A DNA stretch of 32,000 nt from Pseudodesulfovibrio piezophilus C1TLV30 (GCF_000341895.1 NC_020409.1:1470001-1502000), one strand, 5' to 3'; positions 24,022 through 32,000 are shown, counted from the first letter of the stretch. Notes: generated from the letters alone by a model not told the origin. Numbers and translations are program-made.

Positions 24022-25041
24022 ATGTCTTTTCCCAATCCAAAAGCATCCCTGGCCCCGATCGAAAACACCCTGATGGAAGCTGTCAGTGCCCACGCAATTC
24101 TCGATTCCATCGAGTTAGGCATTTTCGACCATTTGAACGAGGCTCCTCTCACGGCTCATGGTCTTGCCGAAAAACTGGGGTTGAAAGAAAAGCCTCTTGA
24201 AGCACTGCTTGACGTACTGGTCACCAAGAAACTTCTTGAACACCCCGGTACTGAGTACGCCAATAGCCTCATGGCTCAAGAATACATGGTAAGCTCCTCC
24301 CCTCTTTTTCAGGGAGCGGCCATGACCATGCAAGCCCGATTCAACGAGACAATGCGACAAGGTTTTAGAAACATCCTGAAGGAGGGATCGCTCAAACGGA
24401 ATGAGGTGGATGAAAATTGGGGGGAGTACGAAACAATGCTGGGAACCTATCAACATGCACTGAACGGTCAGATACAAGGAACAACAGCATACCTGGCAGC
24501 ACTCCCGGAATTCCCTTCTTTTCGCAGCATGGCAGACGTCGGCGGCAACCATGGGCAGTATTCCATGGAACTTTTGGAACGAAACCCTGACTTGAAAAGC
24601 ACTCTCTACGACTTTCCGGCAGTTGTTTCAGCCGCCTCCCAACGCTGCAAAGACAGGGGTTTTGCCGACAGGCTGACGTGCACCGAGTTTGATCTTCGCG
24701 CAGACGCGTTACCCCGGGACTCCTATGACCTGATTTTCTTCTCCCATATACTGTACGGCTGCAAGGACGATTTGCACTCGATTTTCACAATGGCCAAGAA
24801 TGCCCTGAAAACTGGAGGATGCCTCGTCAGCCAACATTTCGCCCCTGAAGGCGGCGCATCTGAATTGTACAAGACCAATGTGGAACTGCTGACAAGACTG
24901 CTCGGCTACGACACCCACTTCATCGCTCGTGCGGAATTGGAAGACGCCTTGCTCAAGACTGGGTTCGGACAGATGGAACACACATTCACTGGCGTTGACG
25001 GACAGAGCCTCCTACTGATCGCTCGAAAGTCCTCAACCTGA
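24022..25041 (+). CDS. SAM-dependent O-methyltransferase (family 2, with N-terminal dimerisation/winged-helix domain)
   Basis: Start at MSFPNPK, 5 nt after AGGAGG. DVGGNHGQYSMELLERNPDLKSTLYDFPAVV is the class I SAM-binding motif in the arrangement seen in small-molecule O-methyltransferases. Confidence 0.75.
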   Translation: MSFPNPKASLAPIENTLMEAVSAHAILDSIELGIFDHLNEAPLTAHGLAEKLGLKEKPLEALLDVLVTKKLLEHPGTEYANSLMAQEYMVSSSPLFQGAAMTMQARFNETMRQGFRNILKEGSLKRNEVDENWGEYETMLGTYQHALNGQIQGTTAYLAALPEFPSFRSMADVGGNHGQYSMELLERNPDLKSTLYDFPAVVSAASQRCKDRGFADRLTCTEFDLRADALPRDSYDLIFFSHILYGCKDDLHSIFTMAKNALKTGGCLVSQHFAPEGGASELYKTNVELLTRLLGYDTHFIARAELEDALLKTGFGQMEHTFTGVDGQSLLLIARKSST

Positions 25042-26298
25042 CTCAGCTGATGATGCCCCGCAGGAGTCTGAGTTTTGTCGCCCCATATCCACGCAAAGGA
25101 TACGGTGATCCCGACTGCCTTTATGGTAAAAAACCTGAGCGATGGTGGTGCAAAGATTACCCGAAGCCATCGATATATAAGGAGGAGTTGTAAACTTCTC
25201 AAGCCCGGCCTGGATTGGCAGAAAGTACTCCTTGAGTGAGTGATCTGCGCCAATTCGGGCCGGTTCATAGAGGAACCGCTTGCTTTTACGAAGCTTGTCA
25301 GGATTGCATATGGTATTTGAAACCTGCCTGCCCTGCATATCAAGCACATAGAGGCACTCAACATTTGGATAATTCGCTATAAATTCAGACAAGCGATGGT
25401 CAATTTCACGGGATGGACGGTTTGCCAGGCTTTGACACATCGTGAGTACAATATGGTAGAATCCGGAAAAAAGCTGTTTTTCCTCTGCAATACGGCGGGT
25501 CTGATTATCCCTGTATTTTTCTGCAAGAGCATCAATCTTGTTGGCCATACACGGAACTGCTGACAGGCCCGGTGCTGGCCGGGCAAAAAAGAATCCCTGA
25601 AAGATATCAATACCATTGCCAAGCAGACACATGGCTTCATTGCTTGTTTCCACTCCCTCGGCAAGTACCAGACAGCCAAGGCGGCTCGACATCTGCACAA
25701 AACTGCGCACAACCTCCAGCTTGTGGAACTGTTTATCCACTCCGGAAACAAGAGATCGGTCAAGCTTGATGATGTCCGGCTTGAGCAATGGGATCCGATC
25801 CAGATTAGAGTAGCCCGCGCCGACATCATCCAGCCCGATGAGAAAGTTCTTTTTACGATAGAATCGAACGAACTCCATAAGCGCATTTTCATCTTCGCAT
25901 CGCGATTCAATGATTTCTATAATGACATTGTTCGGGCTGATCCCACAACGCTTGACGAGTTCAAGCAGATGATTGGACCCGCGAGTCATGCTGTTGATGC
26001 AGGACGCATCGATATTCATGGAAAGCATGACACTTTTGTCACGACGATGAAGCGTTGCAAATGATTCCACAGCCTTTGTCCGGCAGACCCGATCAAGAGC
26101 AAGACGGGACACCCCGTCCCGAGCCTGATCAAATAAAGACGTAGGAGGTATAAGCTCGCCACTCTCTGGGTCAAATCCCCGACTCAAGGCTTCCAACCCG
26201 ATGACAGCCTTGCGCTTGAGCGAGACCTGCGGTTGAAAATAGGTGAGAATCCGTTCATTCTCAATTATGTCATGAAGGCTGGGTGCTGTGGTCGCCAT
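25033..26298 (-). CDS. EAL-domain c-di-GMP phosphodiesterase with a C-terminal Cache/PAS-like sensor domain
   Basis: All EAL catalytic motifs appear intact (QPQV, EALSR, N, EIIES, DDVGAGYSNL, KLDRS, EGVET, QGFFFARP). The C-terminal 150 aa has a Cache-like pattern (DHSLKEYF...PPYISMASGNLCTT). Start set at M65, because the upstream ATG at 26397 sits in the glnK terminator stem. Confidence 0.75.
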   Translation of the reverse strand: MATTAPSLHDIIENERILTYFQPQVSLKRKAVIGLEALSRGFDPESGELIPPTSLFDQARDGVSRLALDRVCRTKAVESFATLHRRDKSVMLSMNIDASCINSMTRGSNHLLELVKRCGISPNNVIIEIIESRCEDENALMEFVRFYRKKNFLIGLDDVGAGYSNLDRIPLLKPDIIKLDRSLVSGVDKQFHKLEVVRSFVQMSSRLGCLVLAEGVETSNEAMCLLGNGIDIFQGFFFARPAPGLSAVPCMANKIDALAEKYRDNQTRRIAEEKQLFSGFYHIVLTMCQSLANRPSREIDHRLSEFIANYPNVECLYVLDMQGRQVSNTICNPDKLRKSKRFLYEPARIGADHSLKEYFLPIQAGLEKFTTPPYISMASGNLCTTIAQVFYHKGSRDHRILCVDMGRQNSDSCGASSAESG

Positions 26299-26364
26299 TG
26301 AAATTACATATGACTGACGGAGAGTCGTCTGTGACAGGCTGCTTCGCGTTCGGTTGGAGTTTTG

Positions 26365-26395
26365 AAAAGGCCGGGACGGACTCGCCGCCCCGGCC
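26365..26395 (-). terminator. Candidate terminator after glnK
   Basis: On the minus strand GGCCGGG pairs with CCCGGCC, with 3 further inner pairs, followed by TTTTC. It begins 25 nt after the glnK stop. Confidence 0.5.
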
Positions 26396-26419
26396 ATATC
26401 GGTCTCTTGACACTCAGTT

Positions 26420-26752
26420 TTAAAGGATACCGTCTTCGGCGGTTCTGATACGCAGCGCCTTGGCAAGCTCGGTGACAAAGATGACACCATCGCCTTCGCT
26501 TCCGGTCTGTCCTGCGGTCTGAATGGCCTCTATGGCTTTCGCCTCGAAGTCGTTATTGACGCCGATTTCAAGACGAACTTTCTTGAGCAGGTTCACTTCC
26601 ATCTGGACGCCACGGTAGGTTTCGGTAAACCCTTTCTGACGACCTGATCCCAGGATATTTGTCACGGACATGGAGTATATTTCCTTGGCGAACAAGGCTT
26701 GCTTCACGTCATTGAGTTTTTCAGGTCTGATGTATGCTATGATGAGCTTCAT
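26420..26752 (-). CDS. glnK: Nitrogen regulatory protein P-II
   Basis: 110 aa. The T-loop [14 protein letters not shown] has the conserved Tyr. Lies directly downstream of amtB. Confidence 0.93.
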
Positions 26753-26793
26753 TTTTTCTTCTCCTTATAGTGTCTGGTGATCGAACTTCGCGC

Positions 26794-28152
26794 CTATTCG
26801 TTGCTGAAGAGCTGGAATCCGTTGTAGGACTCGGAGCCGTGCTCAGCAATATCCAGACCCTTAAGTTCTTCTTCCTTTGTGACACGCAGGCCAAACAACC
26901 CCTTGACGACAGACATCAAGATGTAGCCAGTACCAAATCCCCAGACGAAGAAGACACCGACACCTATGAGCTGAACACCGAGCTGAGCGAAACCGCCGCC
27001 ATAGAACAACCCACCATCAAGATTGAATAAACCGCAGGCAAGCGTTCCCCATGCACCGCACACACCATGAACCGAAGAGGCTCCGACGGGGTCATCGATC
27101 TTGAGAACCTTGTCGATGAATTCAATGGAAAGGACAACCAGGCAACCGGCGACCAGGCCGATGGCGATAGCACCGCTGGGCGAAACAGTGGCACAACCGG
27201 CAGTGATACCCACCAGACCAGCCAATGCTCCGTTCATGGTCATGGAGATGTCAGGCTTGCCGTACCGGAACCAGGAGATGAACATGGCACCAAGGACACC
27301 GCCAGCAGCAGCCAGGGAAGTATTCATGGCGATCAGACCAATGGTGTCATCAGCAGTGGTGGTGGAACCGGGATTGAATCCGAACCAACCGAACCAAAGG
27401 ATGAAAACACCCAGACCAGCCAAGGGGATGTTGTGACCAGGAATGGCATTGGCTTTTCCGTCTTCGGTGTACTTGCCGATACGAGGACCAAGCACCAATG
27501 CTCCGGCCAGGGCAATCCAACCACCGAGAGAGTGAACGACCGAGGAACCGGCAAAGTCACAGAATCCAAGGCCTTCCAACCAACCGGCACCGTCATCTCC
27601 AAGCCACAGTGAACCCCAGGCCCAGTGACCGGACATTGGGTAAATGATAGCGGTAATGACAATGGAAACAAGAATGTAACTGGAAAATTTGGTCCGTTCG
27701 GCCATACCACCGGAGACGATGGTCGCGGCAGTCGCAGCAAACACGGACTGGAAGAACCAGAAAGTGTAAGACCAGGGCAGGTCGGCAGCAGACACACCAC
27801 TCAGGGCGTAGCCGGAGGTGCCGATAAATCCGCCTGCATCCAGGCCGAACATAACGGCAAAACCGAACAGGAAAAAGACGACAGAACCAACTGCGAAATC
27901 CAGAAAGTTCTTCATCATGATATTACCGGCCGATTTTGCACGGGTGAACCCGGCTTCGACACAACCGAACCCGGCCTGCATGAACATGACCAGGATGGCG
28001 GCAACAAGTGTCCAAAGGATGTTACCATTGGACTGGGTGAGGTACTCTACCTCTTCTGCATGAGCAAGGGTCGGGGCAAGGGCAACCACTATGGCTGCCA
28101 TCGCGACAACGGCCTTGCTAAACGTAGGGGTCGGGGACTTTCTCAAAAACAT
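26794..28152 (-). CDS. amtB: Ammonium transporter
   Basis: 452 aa, with a signal peptide and multiple TM segments. Amt signatures DFAGSSVVH and ASSVHGVCGAWG. Confidence 0.95.
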   Translation of the reverse strand: MFLRKSPTPTFSKAVVAMAAIVVALAPTLAHAEEVEYLTQSNGNILWTLVAAILVMFMQAGFGCVEAGFTRAKSAGNIMMKNFLDFAVGSVVFFLFGFAVMFGLDAGGFIGTSGYALSGVSAADLPWSYTFWFFQSVFAATAATIVSGGMAERTKFSSYILVSIVITAIIYPMSGHWAWGSLWLGDDGAGWLEGLGFCDFAGSSVVHSLGGWIALAGALVLGPRIGKYTEDGKANAIPGHNIPLAGLGVFILWFGWFGFNPGSTTTADDTIGLIAMNTSLAAAGGVLGAMFISWFRYGKPDISMTMNGALAGLVGITAGCATVSPSGAIAIGLVAGCLVVLSIEFIDKVLKIDDPVGASSVHGVCGAWGTLACGLFNLDGGLFYGGGFAQLGVQLIGVGVFFVWGFGTGYILMSVVKGLFGLRVTKEEELKGLDIAEHGSESYNGFQLFSNE

Positions 28153-28202
28153 TACGATACTCCTCCTTGAAGTGGAATGCGTTTCTAACCTGGCTCCCTT
28201 CT

Positions 28203-28219
28203 ATCAAGACCCGTGCCAA
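28203..28219 (-). promoter_or_regulatory. Sigma-54 (-24/-12) promoter of amtB-glnK
   Basis: The minus strand reads TTGGCACGGGTCTTGAT, against the consensus TGGCAC-N5-TTGC with one -12 mismatch. It lies about 50 nt upstream of the amtB ATG. Confidence 0.7.
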
Positions 28220-28292
28220 ACTGCATTTTCATTGCTATTCATGTAAAACAGCCAATTCAAAGACGTATGAAACCTTACTATTTTTGCAAATT

Positions 28293-28306
28293 TGTAATTT
28301 ATTACA
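28293..28306. promoter_or_regulatory. Palindrome TGTAAT-TT-ATTACA, candidate enhancer-binding-protein or other regulator site
   Basis: Perfect 6+6 inverted repeat, 75-90 nt upstream of the -24 element, in a strongly AT-rich tract. Confidence 0.3.
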
Positions 28307-28463
28307 TTTTTGAAGTCTCTAAAATATACAAAAATTGTCAACTCAGTATTCAGAAGAAAAACAAACAGGGCTTACTTGTATATAAGGTAATAGAAGACAT
28401 CTATTCGAAATCGCAATTATTTTTATATTGACAGAACATTATCGGAGGGGATATGAATTTTGC

Positions 28464-28559
28464 ATGAATTCCACCATTGCCTCCCCAACATACTTTTCCT
28501 TCTTTTATTTTGGATATTGGTATTGCCGCGCTCGCGGTCTTGGGAGAGGTGCACTGTAA
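28464..28559 (+). CDS. Aromatic-rich leader peptide of the aro operon (putative attenuation leader)
   Basis: Hand-translated 31 codons: MNSTIASPTYFSFFYFGYWYCRARGLGRGAL. Residues 10-20 are 4 Tyr, 4 Phe and 1 Trp out of 11. The ORF ends 38 nt before an intrinsic terminator and 135 nt before the first aro gene. Confidence 0.7.
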   Translation: MNSTIASPTYFSFFYFGYWYCRARGLGRGAL

Positions 28560-28610
28560 CCAACTGGTGGATACAAGCAGAACAAAGAACCTCTTCAAGG
28601 GCCGCGGGCG
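28529..28610 (+). promoter_or_regulatory. Antiterminator helix of the aro leader
   Basis: 28529-28550 pairs antiparallel with 28589-28610: 17 Watson-Crick pairs, 4 G-U and 1 mismatch over 22 positions. The 3' strand covers the whole 5' arm of the terminator. The 5' strand lies in the last 10 sense codons (22-31) of the leader ORF. Confidence 0.6.
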
Positions 28611-28634
28611 AAAGCCGGCGGCCCTTGTTTTTTT
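28597..28634 (+). terminator. Intrinsic terminator (attenuator) upstream of the aro operon
   Basis: AAGGGCCGC (28597-28605) pairs with GCGGCCCTT (28618-28626). An inner GGC/GCC stem is capped by a GAAA tetraloop, followed by G and seven T (28628-34). Confidence 0.8.
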
Positions 28635-28693
28635 ATCTCCCGCCGGTTTCATGAGAACCATGGTCCGAGAGAGACAACCACTGGAGAGAGAAA

Positions 28694-29491
28694 ATGCACA
28701 TAGGCAAAGCTATCAGGCTTGAAAGAATCGTTAATCGTAACACAGGCAGAACCATAGTCGTCCCCATGGATCATGGAGTCACTGTCGGCCCCATTGATGG
28801 ACTGGTGGATATGCGCGAAGCTGTCGGCAAAGTTGTCGCCGGTGGAGCCAATGCAGTCATTGAGCACAAAGGGCTTGTCCGATGTGGACATCGTGCTTCC
28901 GGCAAGGACATTGGCCTCATCGTCCACTTGTCAGCATCAACCAGCCTTTCTCCTTACCCCAATGCAAAATCCCTGGTCGCCTCGGTTGAGGATGCCATCC
29001 GACTCGGCGCAGACGCCGTCTCCATTCACTGCAACCTCGGTGACGAAACCGAATCCGCCATGTTGGCCGATTTTGGAATGGTGGCTTCGAAAGCATCCAA
29101 TTGGGGCATTCCGCTCCTGGCGATGGTGTATGCCCGCGGACCTAAGATTTCCGATGAATACGACCCTGCCGTCGTCGCTCACTGTGCCCGCGTCGGCACG
29201 GAACTCGGGGCAGATATTGTCAAGGTTCCCTACACTGGAGATATCGACACCTTCGCCAAAGTATGCGACGCCTGTTGTGTCCCTGTCGTCATCGCTGGCG
29301 GGCCAAAACTCGACAGCACCGAGTCCTTTCTCCAAATGGTGCATGATTCTCTGGAGGCCGGAGGCGCAGGGCTCTCCGTCGGGCGCAACGTCTTCCAGCA
29401 TGAGGATCCCACCCGTCTGGTCGAAGCACTGAACATGATCGTCCACGCTGATGAATCCGTGGATGTCGCCCTCAATTACCTCAACGGCTAA
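28694..29491 (+). CDS. 2-amino-3,7-dideoxy-D-threo-hept-6-ulosonate synthase (AroA', DhnA-type class I aldolase)
   Basis: 265 aa. [13 protein letters not shown] and the Schiff-base Lys context ADIVKVPY match the archaeal MJ0400-type family. It is paired with a type II dehydroquinate synthase gene. Confidence 0.8.
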
Positions 29492-29507: not shown

Positions 29508-30491
29508 ATGAAAAAAGTCATCTTCAAATCCGTTCCCTTTGACAAGAACCTGATTACTCTGGCCCTGGAATCCGGGGTGGACGCTGTCATGGTGGACGAG
29601 GCCCACGTCAAGGATGTGGAAGCTCTCGGCCGTGTCACCGTCATCACTCCTGAGGCCATGCCCGTTGTCGAACTGACCCAAAAATCAGACGAGGACATTG
29701 CAATCAAGGGCATTCTGGATGGTAAGGACATTGTCCTGAAAAAGGGGTGGGAAATCATCCCGGTGGAAAACATCCTCGCGCAGGTGGACACTCTGGCTCT
29801 GGAATGCGAAAATTATGACCGAGCCATACTGGCAGCAGGCATCCTGGAACGAGGGTGTGATACTGTCGTCGTCCTGCCTGAAGGTGCTGCCGATCTCAAG
29901 CAAATTGTCGCGGAACTCAAACTGTCGCAGGGAACAATGGAGCTTCAAGTCGCCACAGTTACAGCCATTGAATCAACAGGACTCGGGCATAGAGTCTGTG
30001 TGGATACTATTTCCATGCTGAAAAAAGGCCAGGGAATGCTCATCGGCAACTCCTCGGCCTTTTCTTTTTTGGTTCATGCCGAAACCGAATCCAACCCCTA
30101 TGTGGCGGCACGCCCGTTTCGGGTCAACGCCGGGGCAGTCCACGCTTACGCGCAGATGCCGGGTGACAAGACCACATATCTCGAAGAACTCGCGGCAGGG
30201 ACTGATGTTCTCATTGTCGGCGCAGATGGAGCCACCTCATTGGCTACAGTTGGCCGTGTCAAGGTCGAAGTTCGCCCCATGCTGCTGATCAAGGCGGAAG
30301 TCAAAACCGAAAACGGTATCAAGGAAGGCCAGGTCTTTTTGCAAAACGCCGAAACAATTCGGGTTGTCAGCGACAAGGGTGCCCCTGTCTCTGTAGTCAC
30401 TCTTTCCGTTGGTGACAAAATCATGGTCAAGACTGACGAAGCCGGTCGTCACTTCGGTATGCGGATCAAGGAAGAAATCGTCGAGGGATAA
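29508..30491 (+). CDS. 3-dehydroquinate synthase II (AroB', archaeal type)
   Basis: 327 aa, starting at MKKVIFKS. Family recognised from the overall pattern (FLVHAETESNPYVAARPFRVNAGAVHAY) and the gene context. Confidence 0.8.
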   Translation: MKKVIFKSVPFDKNLITLALESGVDAVMVDEAHVKDVEALGRVTVITPEAMPVVELTQKSDEDIAIKGILDGKDIVLKKGWEIIPVENILAQVDTLALECENYDRAILAAGILERGCDTVVVLPEGAADLKQIVAELKLSQGTMELQVATVTAIESTGLGHRVCVDTISMLKKGQGMLIGNSSAFSFLVHAETESNPYVAARPFRVNAGAVHAYAQMPGDKTTYLEELAAGTDVLIVGADGATSLATVGRVKVEVRPMLLIKAEVKTENGIKEGQVFLQNAETIRVVSDKGAPVSVVTLSVGDKIMVKTDEAGRHFGMRIKEEIVEG

Positions 30492-30615
30492 ATCTCTCAT
30501 GGTCCCGGTCCCTGAACCCCAGGGACCGGGAAACTCTCACAAACACTTTTTTGCAGTGCTTTCATCAAAAAATCTGACGCTGAAATCAGAACAGGAAAGC
30601 GGACTGGAGAAACTC

Positions 30616-31716
30616 ATGGGCGACATGGATAAGAGCGATATCCCGGATTTGACAGACCTCAGAGTCAAAATTGACAGCCTGGATAAACAGATCGTGGACC
30701 TTCTCAACCAACGAGCCAGGGTAAGCCTCGGCGTGGGCCGTTACAAAGCCGCCCACAATGAGCCTATCTACAAGCCGTTTCGGGAACAGGAGGTCATGGA
30801 CAAAATTGCAGACTCAAGCCCTGGCCCGCTTCCCGATAAGCACCTCCGTACCATTTATCGGGAAATCATGTCTTCATCCCGTCATTTGCAACGCCCGGAA
30901 CGAGTCGTTTACCTCGGCCCCGAAGGAACCTTTTCCTATTTTGCCGCCATTGAGCACATGGGCAGTTCCGCAGCCCTGACCCCCAAAGGGGACTTCGAAG
31001 AAATATTTCGTGCTGTTGCGGAGGAGGGAGCCGAACTTGGCGTCATCCCGCTGGAAAATTCCATTGAAGGCACTGTCGGACAAGTCGTCGACCTGTTCAT
31101 GAAATACAAAGTCTCTATCCAGGCCGAGGTTTTCAGTCGCATCAGCCACTGCCTGATGTCCAATGCCGACCGCATAGAGGATGTGGAAGTGGTTTACTCC
31201 CATCCGCAACCTCTGGGTCAATGCAGGGACTGGCTCCGCACGCACCTGCGTGATGTGCCGACTATTCCCATGGAATCCTCGGCAGAAGCCGCAGAGGTGG
31301 TCGCGGGCAAAAAAGCCGCAGCCGTGGTGGGCCATGCCAAGCTCGCCGACATGCACGGCATGAATATCCTGGCGCAGTCCATTGAAGACCTGCCGGACAA
31401 CTGGACCCGGTTCCTTATTATCGGATCGTCGCCTTCCCAGGAAGACAAACGGGACAAAACGACCATCCTGTTCACCCTGCCGGACAAGGCAGGTGCCCTG
31501 GCACGCGTTCTGACAACCATGGCACACCAGAGCATCAATATCACCAAACTGGAATCACGCCCGTTTCGTGGAGAAAAATGGAAATATGTTTTCTTCGCTG
31601 ATCTCGAATGTGACCTTGGCGCAGAACGATACGAAGACGTTCTCGAAGATATCCGACAACAGTGCCACACACTTCGTGTGCTTGGAACCTACCCCACCCA
31701 GGAGGAAAGACAATGA
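30616..31716 (+). CDS. pheA: Bifunctional chorismate mutase / prephenate dehydratase (P-protein)
   Basis: Start at MGDMDKS, 6 nt after GGAG. CM helix LRVKIDSLDKQIVDLLNQRA. PDT domain (VVYLGPEGTFSY, IPLENSIEGTV, TRFLIIG). ACT domain with ESRP. Confidence 0.9.
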   Translation: MGDMDKSDIPDLTDLRVKIDSLDKQIVDLLNQRARVSLGVGRYKAAHNEPIYKPFREQEVMDKIADSSPGPLPDKHLRTIYREIMSSSRHLQRPERVVYLGPEGTFSYFAAIEHMGSSAALTPKGDFEEIFRAVAEEGAELGVIPLENSIEGTVGQVVDLFMKYKVSIQAEVFSRISHCLMSNADRIEDVEVVYSHPQPLGQCRDWLRTHLRDVPTIPMESSAEAAEVVAGKKAAAVVGHAKLADMHGMNILAQSIEDLPDNWTRFLIIGSSPSQEDKRDKTTILFTLPDKAGALARVLTTMAHQSINITKLESRPFRGEKWKYVFFADLECDLGAERYEDVLEDIRQQCHTLRVLGTYPTQEERQ

Positions 31717-32000
31717 CCCAGGAACCGATCGTCATCAATGCGCCGCCCAGCAAGTCTCTGTCACACCGCACCCTCATTGCGGCGGCCCTGGCCAAGGGCA
31801 CTTCCGAAATATCATCAATCCTCGTCTCCGATGATATTACACGCACGCGCAATTGTCTCACTGCCTGCGGGGCTGCCATCGAGGAAAAAAACGGCAACCT
31901 CATTGTGACCGGCATGGAAGACGGGCCCAAAGGAGGCAATGCCGACGGCAAGCACAAAGGGGAAAAGCCCCATGAACTTTTCATGCACGAATCCGGTACT
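31713..32000 (+). CDS. aroA: 3-phosphoshikimate 1-carboxyvinyltransferase (EPSP synthase), 5' partial at window end
   Basis: Hand-translated MTQEPIVINAPPSKSLSHRTLIAAALAKGTSEI, which contains the KSLSHR motif. The ATG overlaps the pheA stop (ATGA). The frame is open to the window edge, so it is absent from the ORF track. Confidence 0.85.
   Translation, partial: MTQEPIVINAPPSKSLSHRTLIAAALAKGTSEISSILVSDDITRTRNCLTACGAAIEEKNGNLIVTGMEDGPKGGNADGKHKGEKPHELFMHESGT

Follow-up and report, generated by a model that had tools for sequence, protein, structure and literature searches.

What controls the operon that opens with an archaeal-type ADH synthase gene (aroA') in Pseudodesulfovibrio piezophilus C1TLV30, and what is the role of the short open reading frame (ORF) rich in aromatic codons, and of the hairpin, that precede it? 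These questions were addressed in a window of 32,000 nt of the genome (GCF_000341895.1, NC_020409.1:1470001-1502000); all positions below are counted from the first letter of this stretch. A first-pass annotation of the window had read the leader region as a classic attenuator. Our analysis indicates that the element at 28428-28634 is very likely a transcription attenuator of the ribosome-mediated kind, responsive to how much charged Phe-, Tyr- and Trp-tRNA is available. The parts of the element, their conservation, the covariation of both helices and the near-equal stability of its two states were observed directly.

The Tyr-, Phe- and Trp-rich leader ORF of 31 codons that the first-pass annotation had singled out is present in full (Table 1) and is conserved in relatives; nine of the eleven codons from 10 to 20 are aromatic. 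This 9-of-11 stretch is the unique maximum among the ~46,300 stop-free 11-codon windows in the six frames of the 32-kb window, and all six windows with at least seven aromatic codons lie inside the leader ORF. A short ORF enriched in end-product codons, upstream of a biosynthetic operon, is the first mark of an attenuator. Pfam and NCBIfam scans of four leader peptides matched no family, and none of ten leader peptides looked up exactly was present in a collection of 15 billion proteins; the ORF is therefore regarded as unannotated.

The distribution of the element was followed with a scan for the ADH synthase protein at one genome per species, which returned 80 loci (labelled here with L-numbers). 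The 59 bacterial loci, from Desulfovibrionaceae, Desulfohalobiaceae, Desulfonatronum, Desulfobacteraceae and related groups, rank above those of Aquificae and archaea. A small ORF with 6-10 aromatics per 11 residues stands ~100-260 nt upstream of ADH synthase in 49 of these 59 loci, and no comparable aromatic-rich small ORF was found at the archaeal and Aquificae loci of the scan. In the 45 distinct leaders Phe, Tyr and Trp make up 28% of residues, 35 leaders contain all three, and aromatic codons number 385 in frame versus 131 and 203 when the leaders are read in the alternative frames. The C-terminal motif RA(C/R)GxGRG of the leader peptide is conserved among relatives, and the N-terminal halves lack conservation across loci. 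A covariance model built from the MAFFT alignment gave exactly one strong match per locus, always upstream of ADH synthase and with no second copy in the window, and also matched 5 loci outside its building set. Terminator and antiterminator, with compensatory changes, are conserved across 43 loci; the alignment of upstream regions that had been proposed as a check found both a conserved aromatic run and compensatory changes in the two helices.

Between the leader ORF and the first structural gene lies the second part of an attenuator, the strong intrinsic terminator with a GAAA loop and T7 tract that had been predicted. RNAfold assigns the hairpin -29 kcal/mol, the 186-nt segment folds with a z-score of -4.0 relative to shuffles, and the terminator motif occurs once in the 32-kb window with 0 expected. 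Nearly all Desulfovibrionales loci have a hairpin of the pattern GGGCCGC(N)GGC-loop-GCCGGCGGCCC with a T-run behind it. When 37 distinct sequences are aligned with MAFFT, the stem can form in 93.8% of cells, and 7 of its pairs show compensatory changes. A role for the hairpin as terminator of an upstream gene was ruled out: the neighbouring ammonium transporter (amt) and P-II genes (26420-28152) lie on the minus strand and are transcribed away from the leader, so the hairpin cannot terminate them.

In most loci that have this type of terminator, a 1x1 mismatch (G.G or A.G) interrupts the stem at alignment columns 89/105 (28606/28617 in the window). The 5' base of this mismatch, 28606, is perfectly paired in the antiterminator, and L034, L026 and L028 have a perfect stem with no mismatch. 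The mismatch looks like a built-in tuning that keeps the two states nearly isoenergetic.

The third part, the antiterminator, pairs strand 2, inside the leader ORF, with strand 3, which doubles as the terminator 5' arm. Its register was recovered exactly as proposed: counted by hand, 28529-28550 and 28589-28610 form 17 Watson-Crick and 4 G-U pairs with 1 mismatch, and compensatory changes appear on two alignments. In the structure-blind MAFFT alignment of the 37 sequences, 81.6% of cells pair at this register versus 42-47% when the strands are slid by 1-3 columns, and 0 of 500 shuffles reached this level. The covariance-model alignment of 43 sequences was fitted to the structure and is hence biased towards it; there, 85.3% of cells pair, all 8 distal pairs show compensatory changes, and doubly changed cells number 77 versus 27 +/- 4 in shuffles. 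Distal duplexes are more stable between cognate than between non-cognate strands (-12.5 versus -9.5 kcal/mol, permutation p < 1e-4). At 28533-28606, 22 sequences have a U-A pair and 11 have C-G; the 3' base of this pair is the mismatched base (G.G or A.G) of the terminator, and the change at 28533 switches a codon between Arg and Cys. Since this covariation is explained neither by the terminator nor by the peptide, it argues for selection on the antiterminator RNA.

Terminator and antiterminator have 28596-28609 in common and are mutually exclusive there, as the two states of an attenuator must be. This exclusivity applies to the proximal 13 bp of the antiterminator (28529-41 with 28598-610), which are in real competition with the terminator stem. 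It does not extend to the distal third: RNAalifold places the helix 28543-50/28589-96 in the same consensus as the terminator, so that this helix is compatible with both states and, on this modelling, probably nucleates the switch. While the 3' arm of the terminator (strand 4) is absent, the antiterminator is the minimum-energy fold at -42 kcal/mol; at full length the best terminator fold (-49.8 kcal/mol) and the best antiterminator fold (-47.5 kcal/mol) are nearly isoenergetic. Folding with and without a masked leader, another check suggested at the outset, led to the terminator when 28542-70, the footprint of a ribosome at the stop codon, was masked, and to the antiterminator when the leader was unmasked and strand 4 absent. 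Masking by a ribosome stalled early in the aromatic run, before strand 4 exists, likewise gave the antiterminator. The computed energies fit a kinetic, co-transcriptional switch.

Table 1. Predicted attenuator and following operon in the window.
Feature	Position	Strand	Remarks
-35 hexamer TTGACA of predicted leader promoter	28428-28433	+	TTGACAG invariant in close relatives
GGAGGGG	28444-28450	+	between -35 and -10-like hexamer, 13 nt from ATG
Weak -10-like hexamer TATGAA	28452-28457	+	putative; 18-nt spacer
Mini-ORF ATG AAT TTT GCA TGA	28453-28467	+	4 codons, overlaps leader ATG
Predicted transcription start, A of leader AUG	28464	+	putative; 6 nt after -10-like hexamer
Leader peptide ORF	28464-28559	+	31 codons + TAA, encodes MNSTIASPTYFSFFYFGYWYCRARGLGRGAL; aromatic-rich ORFs at equivalent place in 49 related loci
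Candidate strand 1 (CCUCCCCAA / ACUUUUCC)	28478-28497	+	can pair with 28540-28550; in minimum free energy fold
Regulatory codon run Y F S F F Y F G Y W Y	28491-28523	+	codons 10-20: 4 Tyr, 4 Phe, 1 Trp
Strand 2, 5' strand of antiterminator	28529-28550	+	within leader codons 22-29
Strand 3, 3' strand of antiterminator	28589-28610	+	28596-28609 doubles as terminator 5' arm
Intrinsic terminator hairpin	28596-28627	+	10 + 3 bp around G.G mismatch 28606/28617, GAAA loop
T7 tract of terminator	28628-28634	+	T-runs after hairpin in most relatives
aroA' (ADH synthase), first gene of predicted regulated operon	28694-29491	+	TIGR01949, 4e-118
aroB' (3-dehydroquinate synthase II)	29508-30491	+	NF002628, 1e-165
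pheA (chorismate mutase / prephenate dehydratase)	30499-31716	+	NF008865, 3e-73, and chorismate mutase domain; start codon approximate
Next operon gene, N-terminus resembles EPSP synthase	31713-32000	+	runs off window; translation MTQEPIVINAPPSKSLSHRTLIAAALA...

Two ideas had been put forward for the start of the leader ORF: a leaderless mRNA, and initiation from GGAGGGG together with the mini-ORF. The comparison of relatives bears out the first. In 30 of 50 sequences (the window and the 49 loci) a distance of 29-32 nt separates TTGAC from the leader ATG, and these 30 all start with ATG and contain no Shine-Dalgarno motif. Relatives carry TAnnnn (TAGCTC, TAACCC, TAAGTn) 17-18 nt after the -35 hexamer. 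All 29 distinct promoters carry a pyrimidine at -1 (C 25 times, T 4 times) and A at +1; RNA polymerase prefers a pyrimidine at -1 and a purine at +1 of a transcription start. A leaderless start is better supported than the GGAGGGG version because the promoter-to-ATG geometry is conserved, whereas GGAGGGG and the mini-ORF are not: TTGACAG is invariant in the 13 closest relatives and the other two are absent from all of them. The GGAGGGG and mini-ORF start was rejected on this ground. The leader ORF of the window is probably translated from a leaderless mRNA, with its start predicted from promoter geometry.

It is unlikely that the element is an attenuator whose ORF sits on a longer mRNA, with GGAGGGG as its Shine-Dalgarno sequence and possibly the mini-ORF as an intermediary. 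GGAGGGG and the ATGA overlap are indeed present in the window, the -10 hexamer is weak, and in gut-type Desulfovibrio and some Desulfobacterales the leader ATG is preceded by an AAGGA Shine-Dalgarno motif in place of the TTGAC geometry. Yet GGAGGGG falls in the spacer that separates the conserved -35 from the -10-like hexamer and is 13 nt away from the ATG, it shares its absence from the closest relatives with the mini-ORF, and all 30 sequences with TTGAC geometry combine the lack of a Shine-Dalgarno motif with a pyrimidine at -1 and A at +1.

In the attenuator that we favour, translation of the ORF, the transcription start, ribosome stalling and the regulatory response are the steps that we infer. 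Transcription would start on the A of the leader AUG (28464) or immediately beside it, and the leader ORF would be translated leaderless. With aromatic amino acids plentiful, the ribosome would pass codons 10-20 and then strand 2 to reach the stop codon at 28557, and strand 2 would be barred from strand 3 during the synthesis of 28589-28634. The hairpin at 28596-28627, followed by T7, would then form as the terminator, and a transcript of ~170 nt would end near 28634. With any of the three amino acids scarce, the ribosome would stall in the Y/F/W run and leave strand 2 free. Strand 2 would pair first distally (28543-50 with 28589-96), after which 28529-41 would zip with 28598-610, the terminator 5' arm, before the 3' arm exists, and the polymerase would read through into aroA'-aroB'-pheA-EPSP synthase and beyond.

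Several observations weigh against this account or limit it. A simple consensus scanner called neither a promoter nor a terminator at the leader, because the last T is missing from TATGAA and a mismatch interrupts the stem; the -10-like hexamer is weak and went unrecognised by the scanner. The T-tract is broken up in a few relatives (L002, L014, L016, L021, L029). When the ribosome is at the stop codon, its footprint covers no more than the 3' part of strand 2 and does not reach 28529-41, which means that timing or a small local hairpin at 28525-38 must contribute to termination as well. With no ribosome and strand 4 absent, equilibrium folding also leads to the antiterminator, and the classic outcome that no translation gives termination would therefore need kinetic trapping. 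The Trp codon lies just 11 nt before strand 2, and a ribosome stalled there would mask the first bases of strand 2. Pairing of strand 1 with strand 2 (ACUUUUCC with GGGAGAGGU) occurs in 85% of cells, with no covariation and an equal level at a slide of -1, and is indistinguishable from low-complexity pairing of U-rich with purine-rich sequence. The attenuator reading of the first-pass annotation is supported in that leader, terminator and antiterminator are all conserved, and simple masking is an approximation only, because the ribosome at the stop codon covers just part of strand 2.

A further long-range helix, UCCACCA (28471-28477) with UGGUGGA (28566-28572), has weak support: in relatives it forms in 67% of cells, hardly more than the 65% reached at a slide of -3. 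In the minimum free energy fold this pairing closes the whole leader into one long hairpin.

The amino acid composition of the leaders follows the genes behind them. Four assemblies each contain two ADH synthase loci with different leaders (L003/L026, L002/L028, L043/L051 and L045/L057). A mixed or Tyr/Trp-rich leader precedes an aroA'-aroB'-pheA operon (downstream genes seen for L003 and L051), and a Phe-only (FFFFFSF) or Phe-dominated leader precedes a stand-alone ADH synthase followed by unrelated genes (likewise seen for L026, L043 and L029); L029 shows the stand-alone pattern, and its partner locus was not among the loci seen. Such a match between composition and genes is a prediction of amino-acid-specific attenuation. 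The split between leaders resembles the way in which the DAHP synthase isoenzymes of E. coli share out their labour (PMC5343134).

The Phe-only or Phe-dominated leaders lie at 2824-2966 in L026, 2824-2963 in L028, 2777-2934 in L029, 2776-2928 in L043 and 2777-2926 in L045; one Phe-only example reads MTHNAARFFFFFSFSNR... The stand-alone paralogue in the metagenome-assembled genomes (MAGs) of Desulfobacteraceae (L043/L045) has a terminator, AGGCCGCAGGCGGGGAUGCCGGCGGUCU, and a TTGACA geometry nearly as in Desulfovibrionales, and the main operon of the same MAGs has a quite different attenuator. These sequence likenesses hint that gene and leader were transferred horizontally.

Other leaders of the collection differ more widely. 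Those of seven Desulfobacterales loci (L049, L051, L052, L054, L057, L058, L059) have unrelated sequences and different hairpins, apparently two tandem terminator-like hairpins with T-runs, ~90-200 nt downstream of the leader ATG. Alternative pairings that form a chain, such as CUGUCCACGG with CCGUGGAGAG, were traced there by eye only. A further conserved small ORF that is rich in Phe (MTDFLNFHFARMMFFAFFDTS/AS) occurs ~190-256 nt upstream of ADH synthase in MAGs resembling SEEP-SRB2 and Thermodesulfobacteria (L036, L040, L048), and L037 is similar; this ORF may be another leader peptide of the same kind.

Could the RNA switch be real and yet be set by something other than a ribosome, such as an RNA-binding protein, an uncharged tRNA in the manner of a T-box or a small ligand, with the ORF incidental? 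Covariation supports the RNA helices only, translation of the ORF is a prediction, and an attenuator in D. vulgaris had been predicted on structure alone, without recourse to a peptide. A cmscan search of 27800-29000 against Rfam at E <= 10 nevertheless returned only terminator-like partial matches to small RNAs (sRNAs) below their gathering scores, and no T-box, riboswitch or other family; no sensor domain of these kinds was recognised, and the ~125 nt before the terminator are almost entirely ORF. The ORF, its ATG, the frame-specific run and the overlap with strand 2 are kept across lineages with entirely different nucleotide sequences, and leader composition tracks the regulated genes. A sensor other than the ribosome is on these grounds very improbable.

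Least probable of all is a stand-alone sRNA or micropeptide gene extending from promoter to terminator, with the operon under a promoter of its own: the unit does have its own predicted promoter and terminator and would yield a transcript of ~170 nt, the motif RA(C/R)GxGRG is conserved, and Sinorhizobium trpL is known for an attenuator-derived sRNA and a leader peptide with functions in trans. Yet each locus has a single copy of the motif, always directly before ADH synthase and oriented like it, and the peptide N-terminus is not conserved. RNA pairing accounts for the conserved C-terminus, since the exchange of Arg and Cys covaries with the arm of the terminator, and a role in trans would add to attenuation and not replace it.

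The genes downstream of the leader matched the families listed in Table 1, which makes the earlier assignment of an archaeal-type aro operon right. The gene that runs off the window is probably EPSP synthase, judged by the motif at its N-terminus. On the other side, an AT-rich spacer of ~275 bp (28153-28427) separates the divergent amt-P-II genes from the leader promoter and presumably holds the amt promoter and regulatory sites. A 485-aa ORF on the minus strand (25033-26490) adjoins the P-II gene, and by eye its centre resembles an EAL-type cyclic-di-GMP phosphodiesterase domain.

The attenuator reading places the element beside trpL and pheL of E. coli. In common are a short ORF with codons for the products of the pathway, mutually exclusive terminator and antiterminator, and a leader directly before the operon; in those systems the position of the ribosome decides, and the same logic is proposed here. 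The element of the window differs in that codons for all three aromatic amino acids stand in one ORF, strand 2 lies inside the ORF and not after the stop codon, the leader is probably leaderless, and the operon opens with archaeal-type ADH synthase and 3-dehydroquinate (DHQ) synthase II, not with DAHP synthase or trpE. It does not fall within Trp_leader (RF00513, as cited in PMC4046766), Phe_leader, His_leader or the other amino-acid leader families of Rfam.

The closest functional analogue is the Phe-Tyr-Phe leader peptide of Corynebacterium glutamicum aroF (Mentz et al. 2013, PMC4046766; Neshat et al. 2014, J Biotechnol 190:55, as cited in PMC8079986), in which mixed aromatic codons likewise precede the first enzyme of the common pathway. 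That leader belongs to Actinobacteria, targets DAHP synthase, has three regulatory codons with no Trp and is unrelated in sequence. Leaderless leader peptides are also described from Actinobacteria: trpL, leuL and ilvL of Streptomyces lividans have starts mapped by RNA-seq (PMC8079986), and the ilvB leader of C. glutamicum is leaderless according to the title of Morbach 2000 as cited in PMC4046766. In these cases the attenuator ORF starts at the transcription start, with no ribosome-binding site, as is proposed for the window; the actinobacterial starts were mapped by RNA-seq, and that of the window is deduced from promoter geometry. A leaderless leader peptide in Desulfovibrio or its relatives was not reported in the literature searched.

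For the same type of operon in the same clade, one earlier trace was found: Song et al. (2005, Table 7) listed a 'putative attenuator' before the D. vulgaris aroA' supraoperon, taken from Merino's website of predicted attenuators (PMC1173090). This entry very probably represents the orthologous terminator and antiterminator. It stems from an automated search for alternative hairpins, and mentions no leader peptide, regulatory codons, sensing, conservation or leaderless start. The initial claim that the attenuator had not been described thus stands for the leader peptide in the searchable literature and has to be qualified for the structure, which was listed for D. vulgaris in 2005. The element goes unmentioned in Rodionov 2004, Naville and Gautheret 2010, Korolev 2016, Sun 2013 and Leyn 2016, and full-text literature on Desulfovibrio, leader peptides and attenuation yielded nothing relevant, with several subscription papers outside the scope of the search. 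Comparative regulon studies found the TrpR and TyrR regulons in gammaproteobacteria only (PMC5343134), and RNA-motif surveys of Desulfovibrionales were confined to a few Rfam leader families (PMC3766115).

Together, our results support a widely conserved leader-peptide attenuator with the textbook mechanism of trpL and pheL that is absent from Rfam, Pfam and NCBIfam. Its more interesting aspects are the probable leaderless start, which makes it a likely example of a leaderless leader peptide outside Actinobacteria, and the paralogue-specific tuning of codons. The covariance model finds the element in 43 loci, among which Phe-only and mixed leaders offer a natural comparison, and the small unannotated ORF and premature terminator are currently missed by genome annotation and operon prediction. 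We tentatively propose, with rather less confidence than for the attenuator itself, that the element represents an undescribed attenuator family that is widespread among sulfate reducers and related bacteria and controls entry to the shikimate pathway by the archaeal-type route. Its leaders would often be leaderless and their composition tuned, mixed for the supraoperon and Phe-only or Phe-dominated for stand-alone paralogues, and the family would do the job that isoenzyme-specific feedback and TyrR/TrpR do for the enterobacterial DAHP synthases. The regulation of aromatic amino acids in sulfate-reducing bacteria is essentially uncharted; the element offers a testable regulator of the aroA'/aroB' supraoperon and a possible handle for derepressing aromatic biosynthesis in these organisms.

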